Assembly (NCBI GenBank): GCA_016929395.1
Contig: JAFGIX010000069.1
Location: forward strand, 4,986-68,985
DNA from: Candidatus Zymogenus saltonus
GTDB lineage: Bacteria > Desulfobacterota > Zymogenia > Zymogenales > Zymogenaceae
Direction: 5' to 3'
DNA: 64,000 nt
This document shows, one piece after another, positions 1 to 8,274 of the stretch; within the stretch, counting starts at the first letter, position 1; each line of letters begins with the position of its first letter. The translations under genes and the position numbers were made by a program. The notes under the pieces were generated by a model. That model ran no database searches. It saw only the letters and a program-made list of their open reading frames with translations, and was not told the DNA's origin.

Positions 1-2
1 CA

Positions 3-119
3 AAATTCACCGGGGTCGTGGAGATAGTCTTGAGAAACAGGAGATCGAGCGTAATTATCACCCCGGAGGATAGAGAGGCCTTCGTGAAATGTGCGAAAGG
101 TTTTCTCTCGAATGGATAG
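3..119 (+). CDS. 3' end of a gene running in from upstream (partial, product unknown)
   Basis: The open frame enters from the window edge and ends at TAG 117-119. No recognisable motif. Confidence 0.2.
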   Translation, partial: KFTGVVEIVLRNRRSSVIITPEDREAFVKCAKGFLSNG

Positions 120-209
120 ATGGTCGTTTGAAGAAGTCTATTGTGTAATCTCGCTTTTTGAGACACAGAGTTTTTTCAGGTCAATCAATCATTTTTTAAG
201 AGGAATGAA

Positions 210-1508
210 ATGAAGGTCGTAAAATATTTTCTCGCGGGGCTGGGGATCATCTTTCTCCTCCCGGTTCTCCTCATCTCCGTTATGCTGATCTACTGGGATC
301 TTCGCTCCCCGCCCCCCTTCGAGATCGATCCGGTCTTAAAGCTTGAAAACAGGGTGGCCGTTCCCCACGGCGATGATCCCAGGACGCTCCACAAGTCCAA
401 CACGGACATGGTCTTCTACAACGGATCGTTTTTCCTTATCCACGCCCGGACGAAGTGGCACCTGGAGGACAAAAACGGGGCCCTCATCGTCCAGAGGTCC
501 AACGATGCCGTAAACTGGGAAGAGGTTGCAAGCATCACCGTCCCGGACACGGACGTAAGGGACCCGAAGTTCGCCGCCATCGATGGCAGGCTCTTCGTCT
601 ACTTTCTACCCAACTTCCTATTCGACCCGGAGCCGATGACCACCTACTGGACGGTCAGCGACGACGGGGTCAACTGGGAGACGCCCAAGGAGCTCGATAC
701 GATAGCTGTGGTTGACCGCCGCGGGGACAGTACGGCGGGGAAGGTCACGTCCGGCGGGTGGAACCTGTGGAGGCCTAAGACCAAAGACGGGAAGAACTGG
801 TATGTGATGGCCAGCGGCAACAAGAAGAGGGCGGAGGTCGGCGTCGGGTACGGCGGGAAGATCGAGGGGGACGATGTGGAGGACGAGGGAACGACGCATA
901 TGATAGTCCTCTTAAGGTCGAGCGACGGTGTCAACTGGGAGGAGGTGTCGGAGGTCTACGTCGCCCGCGGCCTCTTCGAGCCGTGCATGGAGTTTCTGCC
1001 GGACGGCCGGATCATCTCGGCAATCCGATGCAGCAGCCTCGGCACCGGCGGGTACGCCTTCGGCAATCCAACGGCGAACACGATCATCGCCGTATCCTCA
1101 GAGCCGTATAAGGAGTGGAAGTACTCCTACAGCTTCATAACGAGGCTCGACGGCGCCACGCTCTTCCCCGTTAACGGGAGGATATTCGCCGTGGGGAGAA
1201 ACCACATGGGCCCGAGGTTTGACATGGGCAATCACCTGGCGACGAAGAGGACCGCCTTCTACGAGGTGAAGGAGAAGGAGCTGGTATTTCTTTTCGACCT
1301 TCCCAGCAACGGCGACACATCGTACACCGGCGTGGTCAGGAGGGGCGACTACATCTACGCCAGCTACTACACCTGCCCCGTCGACAAGGACTACCCGTGG
1401 GTTGTGGGGGTCTGCTTCTTCCCGAAGACCGAGATTCGGGTGGTCAAGCTCTCCGCCAAGGGATTGCTGGAATACGCCGACAGGGTCGGGGCATCGGGCG
1501 GGAGGTAA
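210..1508 (+). CDS. BNR/Asp-box repeat protein, sialidase-like glycosyl-hydrolase fold, N-terminally membrane anchored
   Basis: 432-aa ORF with an N-terminal hydrophobic anchor (FLAGLGIIFLLPVLLISVMLIYW). Three Asp-box-like motifs S-x-D-x-G-x-x-W are present (SNDAVNWEE, SDDGVNWET, SSDGVNWEE). Periodic codon usage is consistent with coding. The internal ORFs of the other frames are GC-driven artefacts. Confidence 0.7.
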   Translation: MKVVKYFLAGLGIIFLLPVLLISVMLIYWDLRSPPPFEIDPVLKLENRVAVPHGDDPRTLHKSNTDMVFYNGSFFLIHARTKWHLEDKNGALIVQRSNDAVNWEEVASITVPDTDVRDPKFAAIDGRLFVYFLPNFLFDPEPMTTYWTVSDDGVNWETPKELDTIAVVDRRGDSTAGKVTSGGWNLWRPKTKDGKNWYVMASGNKKRAEVGVGYGGKIEGDDVEDEGTTHMIVLLRSSDGVNWEEVSEVYVARGLFEPCMEFLPDGRIISAIRCSSLGTGGYAFGNPTANTIIAVSSEPYKEWKYSYSFITRLDGATLFPVNGRIFAVGRNHMGPRFDMGNHLATKRTAFYEVKEKELVFLFDLPSNGDTSYTGVVRRGDYIYASYYTCPVDKDYPWVVGVCFFPKTEIRVVKLSAKGLLEYADRVGASGGR

Positions 1509-1556
1509 CGCCCTTTTTAAGCTCTCTTATGAGCTGTAAAGAAAGGAGGCTTTAGA

Positions 1557-1670
1557 TATGAAATCGAAGGACAAGATGGCATTTGTCGTGAGAATTCTTA
1601 TTTCTCTCGTTATAGGCTTTCTGGTGGTCTACCCGACGATAGTCTACGGGAGGCACTTTCTCATCAAATA
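1557..1670 (+). CDS. small hydrophobic (single-TM) peptide, 37 aa
   Basis: ATG lies 9 nt after GGAGG (aaagGAGGctttagatATG). It encodes MKSKDKMAFVVRILISLVIGFLVVYPTIVYGRHFLIK and sits immediately downstream of the BNR gene. Confidence 0.4.
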
Positions 1671-1720
1671 AGATTATTTGACCTAAAGACCATTGGAAAT
1701 AGAAAGGGAGTTTTAGATAG

Positions 1721-1831
1721 ATGGAATTTGTCAAATCCAAATTGTGGCTTTCAATAAAAGTCGTCTACTGGACCCTTGTCTTTGCGGCGGCGGGATTCTT
1801 CTACTGGCTGATATTCACCACGCTCCTTTAG
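1721..1831 (+). CDS. small hydrophobic (single-TM) peptide, 36 aa, paralogous context to the previous peptide
   Basis: ATG is preceded by GGGAG and the same 'ttttagata' spacer as the upstream peptide. It encodes MEFVKSKLWLSIKVVYWTLVFAAAGFFYWLIFTTLL. Confidence 0.4.
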   Translation: MEFVKSKLWLSIKVVYWTLVFAAAGFFYWLIFTTLL

Positions 1832-1850
1832 CAGGGGTGGCCGGTATTTA

Positions 1851-2110
1851 TTCGTGACCCCGCTTTTGCTGCAGGGGGGCTGGACAAAGTTTCACTGGTT
1901 TTCCGCTTCCCAAGGGGATGACGCTTTTCCTACAGGAATGATACCTATTCTGCCATTCTTGGTTTGACCGGGAATCCAGAAAAATATCAACTGGATTCCC
2001 GCTTCCGCGGGAATGACAGTATATACACTGTTACCGCAGCAGGGGGGAGCGTAAAAAGCTTCTGGATTTACGCTTTCGCTGGGATGACACGATATTCCCT
2101 GCTGCGTAAA
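1851..2110. repeat. cluster of REP-like hairpin-forming repeats (GGATTCCCG...CGGGAATGACA family), with about three degenerate ~65-90 bp units
   Basis: Units such as 'ctggattcccgcttccgcgggaatgaca', 'ggttttccgcttcccaaggggatgacg' and 'ctggatttacgctttcgctgggatgacacg' each contain a dyad. 'gcagcagggggg' is repeated at the start of units. The same family recurs at 62990-63185. Confidence 0.5.
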
Positions 2111-2340
2111 ACGGTGGTGTGAAACGGGTCTATGTTAGTCTTAGGCTTAGTGGATGGGTTTCTATTTCATTGAAAGGGAGAGAGGTTTTGCCCGCCTTGC
2201 CGCCCTCCCCGAACGGGAGAACGCTGCACTACCATAAGAAAGCGGCCGACAGATTTGCGATCTACTGCGTCACCCGGTAGGCGCCCCGTCATATTTCCAC
2301 AGAAAAATATCGTAAAAATATCAAAAAACTTAAAAAATCC

Positions 2341-2369
2341 TTGACATATTAGAATATATATACTAATAT
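2341..2369 (+). promoter_or_regulatory. sigma70-like promoter of the TetR gene (TTGACA - 17 bp - TAATAT)
   Basis: TTGACA at 2341-2346 and TAATAT at 2364-2369, in an AT-rich tract directly upstream of the ORF. Confidence 0.45.
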
Positions 2370-2383
2370 AATAGTACTATTAT
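2368..2383. promoter_or_regulatory. perfect 16-bp palindrome ATAATAGTACTATTAT, candidate TetR operator overlapping the -10 element and start codon
   Basis: The sequence is self-complementary. It overlaps the ATG at 2382. Confidence 0.5.
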
Positions 2384-2972
2384 GGGAAGAAAGGCGAAAT
2401 TTGGTGGGACCGATTTCCTCGACGCGGCCTTGAAGCTCGTGGCGGAGGGGGGTGTGGGGGCGGCCACGGTGTCCGCCATCGCGGAAGAGCTGAAGGCGCC
2501 GATAGGCTCCGTCTACCACAGGTTCCCCACAAAGGAGATACTCCTTGCCGAGCTCTGGCTCAGGAGTGTGGAATCCTTCCAGCACGGATTCTTGGAGGCG
2601 TTGGGCCGCCTCGACGGGCTTTCGGCGGCGCTCCACACCCCCCGATGGGTCAGGGAAAATCCGATCGAGGGCAAAGTCCTTTTGGTCCACAGGCGGGAGG
2701 AGCTGGTCTCCGGGGATTGGCCCGGGGAGGTCAGGGAAAAAGCGGCGCGCCTCTCCCGGGGGCTGGACGAGGGGATAAGGGATTATGCCCGGCGAACCTT
2801 CGGCGACGTTGCGGAGACGTCCATTTTGAAGACGACTTTCGCGCTGATCGACGTCCCCTATTCGGCGACAAAGAGGTATCTTGTGATGGGAAAGATCCCC
2901 CCGAAAATGTTAGACAAGATGATAGAAAAGACATTTTACGCCGTTATCGGAGGAAGAGATGAAGATCTATAA
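2382..2972 (+). CDS. TetR/AcrR family transcriptional regulator
   Basis: N-terminal HTH typical of TetR (TVSAIAEELKAPIGSVYHRFPTKEILLAELW). Length is 196 aa. Confidence 0.85.
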   Translation: MGRKAKFGGTDFLDAALKLVAEGGVGAATVSAIAEELKAPIGSVYHRFPTKEILLAELWLRSVESFQHGFLEALGRLDGLSAALHTPRWVRENPIEGKVLLVHRREELVSGDWPGEVREKAARLSRGLDEGIRDYARRTFGDVAETSILKTTFALIDVPYSATKRYLVMGKIPPKMLDKMIEKTFYAVIGGRDEDL

Positions 2973-3468
2973 CGTACACGAGCGAAATTTCAGCGCAGAC
3001 CTCGAAAAGGTCGGCGCCCTGTTGAATACCCTGGCGGGAGAAGACGACCGACTCTGGCCGAGGGAAAATTGGCCCCCCATGGAGCTTGACGCCCCAGTCG
3101 GGGAGGGGGTGAGGGGTGGACACGGGCCGATAAGATATTTTGTGACCGAATACGTCCCCGGAAGGAGGGCTACCTTCGATTTCATCGACCAGGGCCTCTC
3201 CGAGGGGCTTAACGGACGCCACCTATTCGAGGTCGTTCCACGCCGGGGGTCGGTACTGCTTCGCCACATCGTTGACGCCGACTGCGACCTGAAGAAATGG
3301 CTTAAATGGCAGGTGTTCATCGGCCCCCTTCACGACGCCCTCATGGAGGACGCCCTTGACAACGCCGAGGTGGAGCTGAGCGAAAATCCTAAAAAGCGGT
3401 CGAGGTGGAGCCTCTGGGTCAGGTTCCTCCGCAGGATGTTGGCACGAAGGCGCCGGACCTCCTCATAG
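2959..3468 (+). CDS. hypothetical protein, possibly a small ligand-binding (SRPBCC-like) protein co-transcribed with the TetR gene
   Basis: 169-aa ORF overlapping the TetR stop by 14 nt. No catalytic motif was recognised. Confidence 0.55.
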   Translation: MKIYNVHERNFSADLEKVGALLNTLAGEDDRLWPRENWPPMELDAPVGEGVRGGHGPIRYFVTEYVPGRRATFDFIDQGLSEGLNGRHLFEVVPRRGSVLLRHIVDADCDLKKWLKWQVFIGPLHDALMEDALDNAEVELSENPKKRSRWSLWVRFLRRMLARRRRTSS

Positions 3469-3502
3469 GCCGCATCGTTAATCTTGTTGTTTAGACGGTT
3501 AC

Positions 3503-3542
3503 GGCAAGGGGGCCGAATAGATAATGAAGAGGCCCCCTTGCC
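3503..3542. other. strong stem-loop (12-bp perfect GC-rich stem, 16-nt loop) without a U-tract
   Basis: ggcaagggggcc ... ggcccccttgcc, 35 nt after the stop of the preceding ORF. Confidence 0.4.
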
Positions 3543-3818
3543 TGTCAACGCAATGTATATACGGCGCATCTCACCACAGGCTGAAGGCGTCTCCTTAAAC
3601 ATCAAATAGCTCCAAATCCCTTCATATCCCGCATACTTTAATCAAAATCGGGCGGAGACCTCCCGAAAATCCGTTCCCCTAAAGACTTCCCATTTGGCGA
3701 TAAGGGTGGTAAAATAATCTGCAAAGAGGATTAATTTACCAAAAAATCGCTAAACTTAAGAACCATATCGAAAAAAATCTGTCTTATCTCTAAAACCAAC
3801 GAAGTGTGGGAGGTAAAC

Positions 3819-6230
3819 ATGAGAAGGATAATTCTGCTTTTTATCATCTCGACTTTTTCATTGTCGATATTGACGTTTTCACCGGTTCAGGCGTTTTCGG
3901 AGGAGGAGACGAAGCTTCCCGAGCTTCCGAACAGCTCCGTATCCGTGCCCTGGTCCGATTTCAAGGACCTGATCAAAAAGCTCCTCGTTCCGCCGGAGGA
4001 GCCGCCGGAGCCCCCCCTGCCCCCGATTGACTACTCGATATCCGAGTCGCACTACGCCGGCAGGTTGGAGGGGGAGAGCGCGGTCTTCGATGCGGAGTTT
4101 GCCGTCGACGTACTTGCCGAGAACAAGTGGATAGAGGTGCCGATACTCTCAAGCAGCCTTGCGGTCTCCGACGTTACCATGGACGGCAAGGGTGTGACGC
4201 TGAGGACGTCGGGGAGCTACTATTATCTGATCATGAACAAACCGGGAAGACACATTCTAAAGCTCACGTTTTACAAGCCGGTGGATAAGGGATCGGGGAA
4301 GGTGGGCGTCAACGTGCCGATACCGATGGCGCCCGTATCCACGCTGGAGTTTTCCGTGCCCAAGCCTGGGATGGATTTCACGATCGATCCAGCAAATTAC
4401 AAGAGGACGACGGGTTTGGAGGGATCGACAAGGCTCGAAGCGGCGCTGCCGGTGACAAGCAGCGTCTCCATCTACTGGAGTCCCGCGGTCCCGGAGGAGA
4501 TATCGGGAGAGCTCAGGGTCATGGCCAAGGTCAATACGCTGATCTCTGTGGGGGAGGGCTTTCTCGGCGGGGTATCGACCATCAACTACGAGATCCTCCA
4601 CAAATCGATATCCACCTTCTCTTTTCTGGTGCCGAAGGATATTGATATTATTGACGTCAAGGCGGAGGGGATCAGGGACTGGGAGATAACCCCCGAAGGG
4701 GAAAAGGTGAAGGTGACCGTCAATATGAGCTTTGAGGTCAGCGGCGACTTCAGCCTGGCGGTAATCTACGAGAAAAACATGGGGGACACCACGGCCCAGG
4801 TGGATGTCCCGGAGATAGAGGTCCTCAATATTGTTAGGGAGCAGGGCTTTATGGCGGTTACAAAATCGACGGAGGTAGAGGTGGTCGAGCTAAAGGCCGA
4901 GAACCTAAGCCCCCTCGACGTTACGGAGCTCCCCGGGGAGCTGATCTCCGCCACCGAAAACTCGATCCTCTACTCATATAAATACCTGAAACACCCGTTC
5001 GGCCTGAGGCTCGACGTCACGAAGAACGAGGACGAGGAGGTTGATACCTGCGTCATCATAAAGGAAGAGCTGACTTCCCTTCTTACCGTCAGGGGGGACC
5101 TGGTCACCAGGGCGCGCTTTACCGTGAGGAACACGACCGAGCAGTTCCTGAAGCTCAAGATAGATGAGATGTTTGCAGAGGAGCCTGCGGGGGAGGATAC
5201 TGCGGATGAAGGATCGGTCGGGGAAGATATGGGAGAGGGAACAACCAAGGTGTGGAGCGCCTTCGTCTCCGATAAGCCGGTAAAGCTTACGAGGGACAGA
5301 TACGGCAGGGTTTTGATCCCGCTGGACAGGTCGGTCAAGACGGACGGCGGGATGACCTCTTTCGTCGTGGAGATGACCTACAGCACAGAGACGAAGCCGT
5401 TCAACAGGATAACGGGCTGGAGGACGTTTTACGCGCCTAAGACCGACTACAGGGTGGGAGAGATGACCTGGACACTATATCTCCCGAAGAAATACGTTTA
5501 CAGAAACCTCGGGAAGGATATGGAGCTGATATCGGCTCCTGTGATTTTTCCCGTATCCAAGCCGGGCTACGACGACACGGGGGATATGGGAATCTCAACG
5601 GGTGAGGGATTTGTGGCCGAAGAAGAGATGTCGATGGAAAAGAAGGAGTATGCCCCCGCCCCGTCGGGGGGGCTCCGGAGCCAGACCGAGATGAACGTAA
5701 TCAGAGACAGTATCGACACCATAGGGGGCAAATCGGGAAGGAAGCGGGGGGTCCTGCCGGTAAGGGTCGATATCCCATTTTCCGGTTATAAGTTGGACTA
5801 CAATAAGACGATCGTAAAGAAGGGGGAGGAGTCCATCGTCAAGTTCAGGTTCCAGGGAATGGACGTTAAGAGATGGATCTCCTATATTGAGATACTGGCG
5901 TGGGCCACTTTTTTCGCCACCCTGCTGTTCGCCGTCAGGTCTGCGAGAAAGAGGAAGAGGCTCTACATAAATAAGGATAAGTCGATAGCCGTCGCCGTTT
6001 CCTTGGGGGTAATAATCCTCTTACACCTTTTTTTCATCCTCGATTTCCACGCGCTCAAGTGGGGTCTGTTTTGGGGGCTGGTTGTCGGGCTTCTCTACTA
6101 TCTGAACGATATCAGGCACGAGGTCAAAAAGAGGCTGGCCGAAATCAGGAAAGACAAAGCAGAGGGCAAGGATGAAAAGTCCGAGAAGGATGAGTCGAAG
6201 AAGAGGCGGACGAAGAAAGATGAAGAATAG
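3819..6230 (+). CDS. large secreted protein with a C-terminal TM anchor and lysine-rich cytoplasmic tail (paralog A)
   Basis: The ORF track starts it at 3804, but ATG 3819 is preceded by GGGAGG (3807-3812). The signal peptide is MRRIILLFIISTFSLSILTFSPVQA. The N-terminal motif VPWSDFKDLIKKL is followed by a Pro-rich linker. A C-terminal hydrophobic helix is followed by a KDKAEGKDEKSEKDESKKRRTKKDEE tail. Confidence 0.8.
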   Translation: MRRIILLFIISTFSLSILTFSPVQAFSEEETKLPELPNSSVSVPWSDFKDLIKKLLVPPEEPPEPPLPPIDYSISESHYAGRLEGESAVFDAEFAVDVLAENKWIEVPILSSSLAVSDVTMDGKGVTLRTSGSYYYLIMNKPGRHILKLTFYKPVDKGSGKVGVNVPIPMAPVSTLEFSVPKPGMDFTIDPANYKRTTGLEGSTRLEAALPVTSSVSIYWSPAVPEEISGELRVMAKVNTLISVGEGFLGGVSTINYEILHKSISTFSFLVPKDIDIIDVKAEGIRDWEITPEGEKVKVTVNMSFEVSGDFSLAVIYEKNMGDTTAQVDVPEIEVLNIVREQGFMAVTKSTEVEVVELKAENLSPLDVTELPGELISATENSILYSYKYLKHPFGLRLDVTKNEDEEVDTCVIIKEELTSLLTVRGDLVTRARFTVRNTTEQFLKLKIDEMFAEEPAGEDTADEGSVGEDMGEGTTKVWSAFVSDKPVKLTRDRYGRVLIPLDRSVKTDGGMTSFVVEMTYSTETKPFNRITGWRTFYAPKTDYRVGEMTWTLYLPKKYVYRNLGKDMELISAPVIFPVSKPGYDDTGDMGISTGEGFVAEEEMSMEKKEYAPAPSGGLRSQTEMNVIRDSIDTIGGKSGRKRGVLPVRVDIPFSGYKLDYNKTIVKKGEESIVKFRFQGMDVKRWISYIEILAWATFFATLLFAVRSARKRKRLYINKDKSIAVAVSLGVIILLHLFFILDFHALKWGLFWGLVVGLLYYLNDIRHEVKKRLAEIRKDKAEGKDEKSEKDESKKRRTKKDEE

Positions 6231-8274
6231 GGCTGTAAAGGCGATAGGCCGTTCGGCGGTCTTGCGTTCGGCGGTTTTGATATCTTTCTTCCTTATCCTG
6301 TCGCTGGCACTGTTTCCCCTTGCCGGCTCGGCGGTCGCCGCCGGGGAAAAGGGGAAGGCGCCCGATATGCCCAACACCGACATCACCATACCGTGGGATG
6401 AGTTCAAGGCGCTGATAGAGAAGTTCTTCGAGGAGGAACCGACCCCGCCCACGCCTCCTCCGGTCGAGCTGTCCGTCAAGGAGGCAAAATACACGGCCGA
6501 TCTCTCGCCAGATCTTATCACCGTAAACGCCGACCTTGACGTTATCACCTTCGGTGAGGGTTGGCGGGAGCTTCGGGTCATCGGGGACGGGGCCTCCCTC
6601 GTCTCGCTTACGGTGGACGGGAAATACGCCCCCACGAAGACGAAGGGCGATTCGGTCTACGTCTATCTGAAGGGGAACGGGGCGGAATCCAAAAGGTACA
6701 ATGTGGGGGCGCGCTTTTATGTCTTTGCACCGAAGACGCCGGGCCCACACAGTGTAACTTTTTCGGTTCCAGAAGCGGCCGTGGGCACGATAGCGATGGG
6801 CTACGACCGCAAGTTAGAGAACGTAGGCATAAACGGGATCGTCACATCGAGGTCGGCTGGAAGGGTAAACGGCGTCTTGAGGGGTGAAGGGGCGATAAAG
6901 ATAGACTACACCGTGTCAGCGCCGACGGAGGAGAGAGAGGCGGTCAGGAAGAGTAAACCCGAAGAATCTATAGTCCTCTCCGAGGTGATGACGGTGATGG
7001 ACGTCGAGGAGGAGGCGCTCTTTGTCGACGCCGTCGTTGACTTCGAGGTTCGGGGCGCCCCGACCACCTCATTTGAGATAGGGTTCCCCGATTATCTGGA
7101 GCTGATCGACGTCACGGGCGAGGGGGTCTCGGGATGGGAGCTCAACGAGAAGAAGAACGGTCTGAAGGTAAGGATCGGCTACGAGGTCGTCGGAAACTAC
7201 TCGCTGACGCTCTCCTTCGAGAAAGATTTTCCCGAGGGCACAAAAGAGATCGAGTTTCCGAAGATCGTGCCCTTAAGCGTCAAGCGGGACGCGGGCTACC
7301 TTGCCGTGGTATCGGGCGGCGGCTTTGAGATATCGGAGGGAAAGTATGCGAAGATCGCCCCCCAGGATCCCTCGGAGCTTCCAAGCAAGCTCTTGAACCT
7401 GAAGGGGCTTTCGCCGGTGCTGTCCTACAGGTACACCAACCCCAACTGGCTGCTGGCGCTTAATGTGGAGAAGGGGGAGCTTCTCCCGGTCCTCTCAGCC
7501 AACGCCGATTCGGCGAACGGCGTGGGCGTTGTCACGGCGGACGGAAAAATGGTGTTGAGGACCCACTTCTATATCCGAAACAGGAACCTACAGTACCTTA
7601 AGATCACGATTCCGGAAGGAGGGGAGTTCTGGTCGGCGAGGTTAAAGGGAAGGCCGCTCAAGGTATCCGTAGACAGCGAAAAGAAGATACTCGTTCCCCT
7701 TCCCCTGACGGTTGAGAGAAATGCCGAGCCATTTTTGGTGGAGACGGTCATCTTCGTCCCCGTGGACGAGTCGGACACCCTGGGAAGGATATTAATCGAG
7801 CTTCCCACGCTCAACATCCCCGTCTCGGAGATGATGCTGACCCTCTACCTCCCGGAAAGAAACGATTACGTTCTCTTCGGCGGCGATATGGAGGAGATCG
7901 AGTACTTTGAGAGGATCCTTGAAGAAAAGGACACCTCCTCGGCATTTTACCAGAAGAACATCAAGCTTAGGAGGGACGTCTACGAGAGGCAACAGATGCT
8001 GGAGGACGTGATCAACAAGGATGAGTCGATCGCCCCCGATTCGTCGACTGGCGAAGACGTTTCGTCCCAGTTTCAGATACCCTTAAGGGGGGAGATCCAC
8101 CGCTTCGTGAAACTCATCGTGATCTCGGAGAAGAGCCACGTCACGGCGAATTATGTGAACGGTCGCCTCATGGGAGGGATAAAGCTGGCAGTCTTTTTAG
8201 CCCTCGCCATCGCGCTTTTTATCGGGGGAAGGAGGTTTGTCAGGGAGATGGGCATCAGGCTTAAAAAGAGCTGA
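6220..8274 (+). CDS. large secreted protein with a C-terminal TM anchor (paralog B of the upstream gene)
   Basis: The ORF track starts it at 6172, but the signal peptide begins at MKNRAVKAIGRSAVLRSAVLISFFLILSLALFPLAGSAVAA (ATG 6220). That start overlaps the upstream stop by 11 nt. It carries the same N-terminal motif (IPWDEFKALIEKF) followed by a Pro-rich linker, and a C-terminal TM (IKLAVFLALAIALFIGG). Confidence 0.8.
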   Translation: MKNRAVKAIGRSAVLRSAVLISFFLILSLALFPLAGSAVAAGEKGKAPDMPNTDITIPWDEFKALIEKFFEEEPTPPTPPPVELSVKEAKYTADLSPDLITVNADLDVITFGEGWRELRVIGDGASLVSLTVDGKYAPTKTKGDSVYVYLKGNGAESKRYNVGARFYVFAPKTPGPHSVTFSVPEAAVGTIAMGYDRKLENVGINGIVTSRSAGRVNGVLRGEGAIKIDYTVSAPTEEREAVRKSKPEESIVLSEVMTVMDVEEEALFVDAVVDFEVRGAPTTSFEIGFPDYLELIDVTGEGVSGWELNEKKNGLKVRIGYEVVGNYSLTLSFEKDFPEGTKEIEFPKIVPLSVKRDAGYLAVVSGGGFEISEGKYAKIAPQDPSELPSKLLNLKGLSPVLSYRYTNPNWLLALNVEKGELLPVLSANADSANGVGVVTADGKMVLRTHFYIRNRNLQYLKITIPEGGEFWSARLKGRPLKVSVDSEKKILVPLPLTVERNAEPFLVETVIFVPVDESDTLGRILIELPTLNIPVSEMMLTLYLPERNDYVLFGGDMEEIEYFERILEEKDTSSAFYQKNIKLRRDVYERQQMLEDVINKDESIAPDSSTGEDVSSQFQIPLRGEIHRFVKLIVISEKSHVTANYVNGRLMGGIKLAVFLALAIALFIGGRRFVREMGIRLKKS

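Follow-up and report, generated by a model that had tools for sequence, protein, structure and literature searches.

The 64,000-nt stretch of DNA that was analysed, referred to below as the window, contains a gene coding for a 432-aa sialidase-like protein and, directly on its 3' side, two micro-ORFs of 37 aa and 36 aa, which are named here pepA and pepB (Table 1). The coordinates and translations of both micro-ORFs were found to be as described in the initial annotation, and the ribosome-binding site that it had reported in front of each of them was confirmed. The gap between the partner gene and pepA and the gap between pepA and pepB are both 49 nt long, and pepA and pepB are single-copy within the 64-kb window. 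The GGAGG sequence of pepA is kept in the related loci L001, L002 and L003 and lies within an island of identity to L001, and the GGGAG sequence of pepB is kept in L001. The duplicated stretch noted earlier upstream of both ORFs is also present and comprises 19 nt with 84 % identity (1540-1558 vs 1701-1719). This duplication is common to the window and its closest relative L001 only and is absent from L002 and L003, therefore it is not a deep feature of the locus.

Table 1. Genes and translation initiation signals of the locus, in window positions.
Feature	Position	Strand	Remark and source
432-aa partner gene (sialidase-like)	210-1508	+	ORF listing
Shine-Dalgarno GGAGG	1545-1549	+	8 nt 5' of pepA ATG; read from sequence
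pepA, 37-aa single-pass membrane micro-protein (predicted), MKSKDKMAFVVRILISLVIGFLVVYPTIVYGRHFLIK	1558-1671	+	ORF listing
Shine-Dalgarno-like GGGAG	1706-1710	+	10 nt 5' of pepB ATG; read from sequence
pepB, 36-aa single-pass membrane micro-protein (predicted), MEFVKSKLWLSIKVVYWTLVFAAAGFFYWLIFTTLL	1721-1831	+	ORF listing

The promoter/terminator scan revealed no promoter-like site between the partner gene, pepA and pepB, and terminator-like sites were rarer than in shuffled sequences. A weak hairpin at 1496-1513, with five G-C pairs, a loop of 8 nt and a TTTTT run on its 3' side, overlaps the stop codon of the partner gene and is retained in L001 in part only. The hairpin may reduce the read-through that reaches pepA and pepB, or it may be a chance structure; if functional, it would place peptide expression below 1:1 with the enzyme. 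The hairpin found 3' of pepB does not exceed shuffled sequence in stability (z -0.77), thus no clear terminator is defined there. Other elements were noticed further downstream. The spacer 3' of pepB (1883-2110) contains direct repeats about 96 nt apart (1883-1910 vs 1979-2006) as well as a perfect palindrome (1996-2013; TTCCCGC-TTCC-GCGGGAA) that occurs just once in the window; a similar palindrome lies in the opposite orientation in L001 (~5700-5725), inside an otherwise unrelated spacer. These repeats and the palindrome look like a small REP/MITE-like element. A sigma-70-like promoter (TTGACA-17-TAATAT, 2341-2369) overlaps a 16-nt AT-rich palindrome just 5' of a TetR-family gene (2382-2972), and this palindrome is probably a TetR autoregulatory operator. 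An 808-aa ORF (3804-6230) has a signal-like segment at the N-terminus, hydrophobic helices in its C-terminal part and a tail rich in Lys and Glu; it had no NCBIfam match and overlaps the start of a 700-aa ORF (6172-8274).

Among the checks of the micro-ORFs proposed in the initial annotation were the conservation of their reading frames in homologous loci and the pattern of synonymous and non-synonymous substitutions, and both of these spoke for the ORFs. Throughout the clade of the enzyme, from bacteria to archaea, all related loci retain the pepA and pepB frames. In the comparison of the window with its 89 % relative L001, dN/dS was 0.14 for pepA and 0.07 for pepB, with 0.13 for the partner enzyme, and the differences at codon positions 1, 2 and 3 numbered 1, 2 and 8 in pepA and 2, 0 and 7 in pepB. 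The alignment of the two loci is near-identical across each Shine-Dalgarno sequence and ORF, whereas the spacers and the region behind the pepB stop codon have diverged. The conserved frames, the low dN/dS, the third-position bias and the diverged spacers thus indicate, at the level of sequence comparison, that pepA and pepB are genuine protein-coding genes under purifying selection, which are presumably translated in vivo.

Two features of the region might nevertheless suggest chance ORFs in AT-rich intergenic DNA, or that the real gene is an antisense 62-aa ORF (1552-1740), which had been named earlier as a possible expressed gene. The GC content of the micro-ORF region is 41-45 %, against about 60 % in the partner gene and the neighbouring genes, and the ORFs are apparently uncalled in the NCBI record. 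However, the low GC content results from the F/I/L/V/K/Y-rich composition of the peptides, and GC3 of the micro-ORFs still amounts to 0.62-0.64. The antisense frame is interrupted by stops already in L001, and it is also broken in L003, L004 and L005. Together with the frame conservation across bacteria and archaea and the low dN/dS, these comparisons leave practically no probability to the chance-ORF and antisense-ORF readings, both of which are considered refuted. Identical peptides were gene-called only in a Logan assembly (P0005, P0056), and the identical partner protein (P0066) occurs in an NCBI Deltaproteobacteria MAG under the name 'exo-alpha-sialidase'; this fits pepA and pepB being unannotated in the deposited NCBI record.

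The AlphaFold2 model of the partner protein (pLDDT 92, pTM 0.91) comprises an N-terminal helix (residues ~2-31) and a six-bladed propeller. The Foldseek search with this model returned 5hx0, NanA, trans-sialidase and endosialidase (E 1e-14 to 1e-11) as well as the pseudaminidase, and the best matches were sialidases at probability 1.00. Sequence identity to such sialidase-fold proteins is 9-15 %. Four Asp-box-like S/T-x-D-x-x-x-W motifs are present (S97-D99-W103, S150-D152-W156, T191-D193-W197 and S237-D239-W243), and the partner family has many invariant R, D, E and Y residues, among them R117-D118-P119, E257, R273, R312, R330, R347, Y386 and Y387, which were considered with a view to the Arg triad, the Tyr/Glu nucleophile pair and the Asp acid/base of the sialidase active site. 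Profile matches remained weak: BNR_2 (14.2 bits, cut-off 31.4) and PF24067 (24.9 bits, cut-off 27) were below the Pfam cut-offs, the NCBIfam search gave nothing useful, and among PDB profiles the P. gingivalis sialidase and the pseudaminidase were matched with E values of 0.002-0.02. Thus, of the features that define family GH33, the six-bladed propeller and the Asp-boxes are present, and the curated threshold of the family model is not reached. According to the model, the partner would be a bitopic membrane protein and a putative enzyme, in which an extracytoplasmic sialidase-fold propeller is carried on an N-terminal anchor helix. A conserved motif, Y-W-D-x-R-x-P-P, is located just past this helix. 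Many Asgard homologues (P0150, P0132) possess additional transmembrane helices, from two to about five, on the N-terminal side of the conserved anchor helix, and these multi-helix versions still retain pepA and pepB.

The enzyme family also includes a widespread sister clade (L016-L021, L038-L101), whose members of about 380 aa are N-terminally anchored and have the same propeller at 35-42 % identity. The short insertions of the peptide-linked clade, which correspond to residues 55-59, 164-172, 178-180 and 206-228 of the window's protein, are absent from the sister clade. Transmembrane and domain identity were 0.51/0.67 and 0.41/0.60 in the peptide-linked clade versus 0.27/0.61 in the sister clade, which suggests, as a modest signal, that the anchor helix of the enzyme is relatively better conserved where the peptides are present.

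The linkage of the peptides to this enzyme was followed in a collection of 101 loci, which consisted of ten loci from genomes, those of the context look-ups and 80 retrieved from metagenomes with an enzyme alignment, and in which peptide HMMs were run over all six-frame ORFs. The ten genome loci came from a one-genome-per-species scan with the 432-aa protein and comprised three Thermodesulfobacteriota/Deltaproteobacteria (89, 71 and 67 % identity), one Spirochaetota (56 %) and six Promethearchaeota (Asgard; 46-50 %). In all ten, pepA and then pepB homologues follow the enzyme gene on its 3' side and on the same strand. In the whole collection, every locus with an enzyme at least 45 % identical to that of the window and with downstream sequence present had pepA-pepB directly behind it (31/31, the window not counted), and these loci come from Thermodesulfobacteriota, Spirochaetota and Loki- and Thorarchaeota. 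The genes of the linked loci are separated by short gaps or overlap (2-129 nt), with 6-129 nt from pepA to pepB in the scanned loci. Among the sister-clade loci (enzyme identity at most 42 %), in contrast, the HMMs found pepA or pepB in 0/55, and any small hydrophobic ORF was seen downstream in only 1/55 of those with at least 350 nt of downstream sequence. Six look-ups that started from peptide matches led to an enzyme gene immediately upstream in each case (6/6), and never to peptides away from it.

Two loci departed from this pattern only in appearance. The contig of L036 ends at the enzyme gene, and the enzyme and pepA of L023 share one reading frame owing to a difference of a single base. 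L023 (1880-2113) and L024 (1139-1423) belong to near-identical metagenome contigs that differ by this frameshift near the 3' end of the enzyme gene; the in-frame pepA of L023 reflects either a mistake in the assembly or a naturally occurring fusion of pepA to the enzyme. When all flanking ORFs with a length of 90 aa or more were clustered, no other gene family was common beyond close relatives, therefore the conserved unit is the enzyme-pepA-pepB trio. A conserved fourth gene was considered and dismissed, as two '460-aa' neighbours in L012 and L014 proved unrelated and the clustering recovered the enzyme only. Moreover, the divergence of the peptides follows that of the enzyme: the Mantel correlation of pairwise divergence was 0.70 for enzyme and pepA and 0.73 for enzyme and pepB, and none of 2000 permutations gave a value as high (0/2000). 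The linkage of pepA and pepB to one enzyme clade is strict and clade-specific, in bacteria and in Asgard archaea alike.

As had been stated in the initial annotation, each peptide is essentially one transmembrane helix, with a single strongly hydrophobic 19-residue segment (mean Kyte-Doolittle value 2.54 in pepA and 1.88 in pepB) in which polar residues are almost absent. Lys and Arg residues are located N-terminal of the helix in pepA, in pepB and in the partner enzyme. The pepA family shares the motif G-x-L-V-x-x-P-x-x-L-Y-G-x-H-F-L-I at its C-terminal, predicted outer, end, and the pepB family the motif W-x6-Y-W-x3-F-x6-F-x5-T-L-[LF], with the helix extending to the C-terminus. The periodicity of conservation peaks at 100-105 degrees in each peptide (shuffle fractions 0.03 and 0.01), which is alpha-helical and therefore places the conserved residues on one helix face per peptide, with G20, V23, P26, Y30 and H33 on that of pepA and Y16-W17, F21, A24, F27 and L30 on that of pepB; this signal, like that of anchor conservation, is modest and is derived from about 25 distinct sequences. 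Searches with alignments and HMMs built from locus-derived peptides (A1, A2) found 54 clusters of pepA in 5.8 billion proteins and, in 1.84 billion proteins, 25 genuine representatives at 50 % identity, all of 36-61 aa. The exhaustive profile search of these 1.84 billion proteins detected no fusion of pepA to a larger protein, and the sole long match (P0186) was a repetitive false positive. For pepB, ten clusters were found in the databases.

The window's peptides matched no Pfam or NCBIfam family and had no PHROGs or PADLOC match, and they showed no sequence match to the CydX, KdpF and AcrZ family models. Among 53 pepA and 11 pepB relatives, only scattered sub-threshold matches to unrelated multi-helix families were obtained; some pepA relatives weakly matched DUF2834, DUF4396, TatC and others in Pfam (E 1e-3 to 0.1), and because these matches are spread over unrelated multi-helix families, they were treated as hydrophobic-helix noise. 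The two peptides are also not duplicates of each other (hhalign probability 0.2 %).

Small hydrophobic ORFs preceded by strong ribosome-binding sites are also what would be expected of membrane-active toxins, and the initial annotation had offered two options for the pair, type I toxin-like peptides or small subunits of a membrane complex. Type I toxins such as Hok, TisB, Ibs and Ldr resemble pepA and pepB in being small and consisting of one hydrophobic helix. However, such systems are defined by an antisense or adjacent RNA gene with its own promoter and by a free-standing locus that is often multi-copy and lineage-restricted. Here, the minus strand showed no promoter-like site from 1500 to 1900, and Rfam (positions 1-4000, E<=1) gave no match at the peptides and two chance-level matches elsewhere. 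Even in the 89 % relative the spacers have not been conserved, and the peptides are single-copy, were never found alone, and are conserved behind one enzyme clade in two domains of life with differing cell envelopes. A two-peptide bacteriocin is opposed by the lack of a leader or double-glycine motif in the peptides. A lysis cassette of the holin type, in which the glycosidase would be the lysin, draws on the order of the genes, since small membrane proteins behind an anchored glycosidase recall the arrangement in phages, and on the marginal match of one family member to a holin family (E 0.05). Against this, and against a defence function, there were no PHROGs or PADLOC matches and no relative among 2.9 million viral contigs, and the chromosomal neighbours are variable and non-phage. 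A toxic or lytic function in any of these forms is thus highly improbable. The toxin option of the initial annotation is not retained, while the small-subunit option stands and fits the 31/31 versus 0/55 linkage, the co-divergence, the purifying selection at the level of the enzyme and the single conserved helix face.

The most probable role of pepA and pepB, to which a probability of roughly 60 % may be assigned, is that of N-in/C-out accessory subunits packing on the anchor helix of the sialidase-fold enzyme. Both peptides are below 50 aa with one predicted transmembrane helix, and they lie in the same operon as the partner and are co-conserved with it, as is typical of such subunits; by kind, pepA and pepB would accordingly be small membrane accessory proteins, as far as their sequences indicate. 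The three genes would be co-expressed as one operon, and the propeller would be held at the outer face of the cytoplasmic membrane by the N-terminal anchor helix. The Lys and Arg residues on the N-side of all three helices, along with the propeller being outside in the multi-helix Asgard versions, make N-in/C-out insertion of the enzyme, pepA and pepB the simplest arrangement. The one-face conservation of the peptides and the better-conserved anchor helix form the basis for the proposed packing, in which both micro-protein helices would associate with the anchor helix in a small parallel transmembrane bundle. The most conserved parts of pepA, pepB and the helix region of the enzyme are the outer helix ends, and these aromatic-rich ends (LYGRHFLI in pepA, FFYWLIFTTLL in pepB and IYWDLRSPP in the enzyme) may form a platform on which the propeller is positioned or stabilised next to the membrane, and may also aid its access to membrane-bound glycan substrates. 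The peptides would then act as stoichiometric accessory subunits, as CydX does for cytochrome bd and KdpF for KdpABC. The sister clade has the same anchor without the peptides, so the anchor alone does not require them.

The observation that the sister-clade enzyme works without peptides, which makes them dispensable for basic fold or anchoring, could also be read in favour of a regulatory role. The peptides might be bound regulators in the manner of MgrB, MgtR or AcrZ and would then inhibit the enzyme, alter its oligomeric state or specificity, or direct it to turnover. Such regulators would be expected to show the linkage, the co-divergence and the conservation of one helix face just as well, and the weak hairpin with its T-run at the enzyme stop codon could uncouple their expression from that of the enzyme. 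However, the peptides occur in every member of the clade, within one operon and with very short or overlapping gaps, which suggests constitutive co-expression, and the promoter scan detected no separate promoter. Regulation is therefore regarded as an unlikely explanation. It could further be supposed that the peptides form a membrane device of their own, an oligomeric pore or carrier for the released sugar, linked to the enzyme by pathway and without contact with it; the presence of two different conserved helices, each having a single conserved face, and the strict genetic linkage agree with this. Such a device is very improbable, as each peptide provides a single helix with almost no internal polar residues, no transporter-like family was matched, and the better conservation of the enzyme's anchor helix in the peptide-linked clade would be left unexplained.

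The role of accessory subunits has close analogues among known membrane enzymes and transporters. CydX (37 aa) and CydH/CydS of cytochrome bd oxidase are single-helix proteins of less than 50 aa, encoded directly downstream in the operon of the partner, membrane-bound to it and required for its stability or activity (PMC12648545). The pair of CydX and CydH, like pepA and pepB, represents two different small proteins serving one enzyme. There is, however, no sequence similarity between the two systems, and cytochrome bd is a polytopic redox enzyme, whereas the partner of pepA and pepB, whose association with them is proposed here, is a single-pass anchored extracytoplasmic propeller. Two further one-helix proteins, KdpF (29 aa) of KdpFABC and AcrZ (49 aa) of AcrAB-TolC, respectively stabilise and tune a membrane complex (PMC12648545). 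Both are unrelated to pepA and pepB in sequence and have multi-helix transporters as partners, and the gene for AcrZ lies apart from those of its partner, in contrast to pepA and pepB, which are next to their partner gene in every case. On the side of the enzyme, the closest known proteins are GH33 exo-sialidases and other sialidase-fold propellers (NanA, trans-sialidase, the Pseudomonas pseudaminidase and Dfer_1899, 5hx0), which share the six-bladed fold and the Asp-boxes but differ by the low sequence identity and the sub-threshold family scores given above. We know of no described sialidase with dedicated micro-protein partners, nor of a described precedent for a membrane-tethered glycosidase-fold enzyme with dedicated one-helix subunits, and the literature search returned no description of the enzyme-pepA-pepB module or of a sialidase with micro-protein partners. 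The new elements are therefore two undescribed micro-protein families, a single-pass partner with a glycosidase fold, and the spread of the intact three-gene module from bacteria to Asgard archaea.

A more far-reaching form of the accessory-subunit reading is put forward tentatively and is somewhat doubtful. The trio may constitute an obligate heterotrimeric membrane glycosidase, composed of the propeller and a transmembrane base of the anchor helix and the two micro-proteins, which would act on glycans of the cell's own membrane (lipid-linked or surface glycoconjugates) and whose compact module would have been passed on intact, by horizontal transfer, between Asgard archaea and sediment bacteria.

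Summarizing, annotation regularly overlooks micro-proteins below 50 aa, and a partner is known for few of them. In the case of pepA and pepB, comparative genomics alone was sufficient to assign a specific partner to two new families of micro-proteins, and the contrast of presence and absence between the peptide-linked clade and its sister clade is near-perfect. Since the three-gene module is common to Asgard archaea and anaerobic sediment bacteria, it would represent a clean case of the cross-domain transfer of a small, putative membrane complex.
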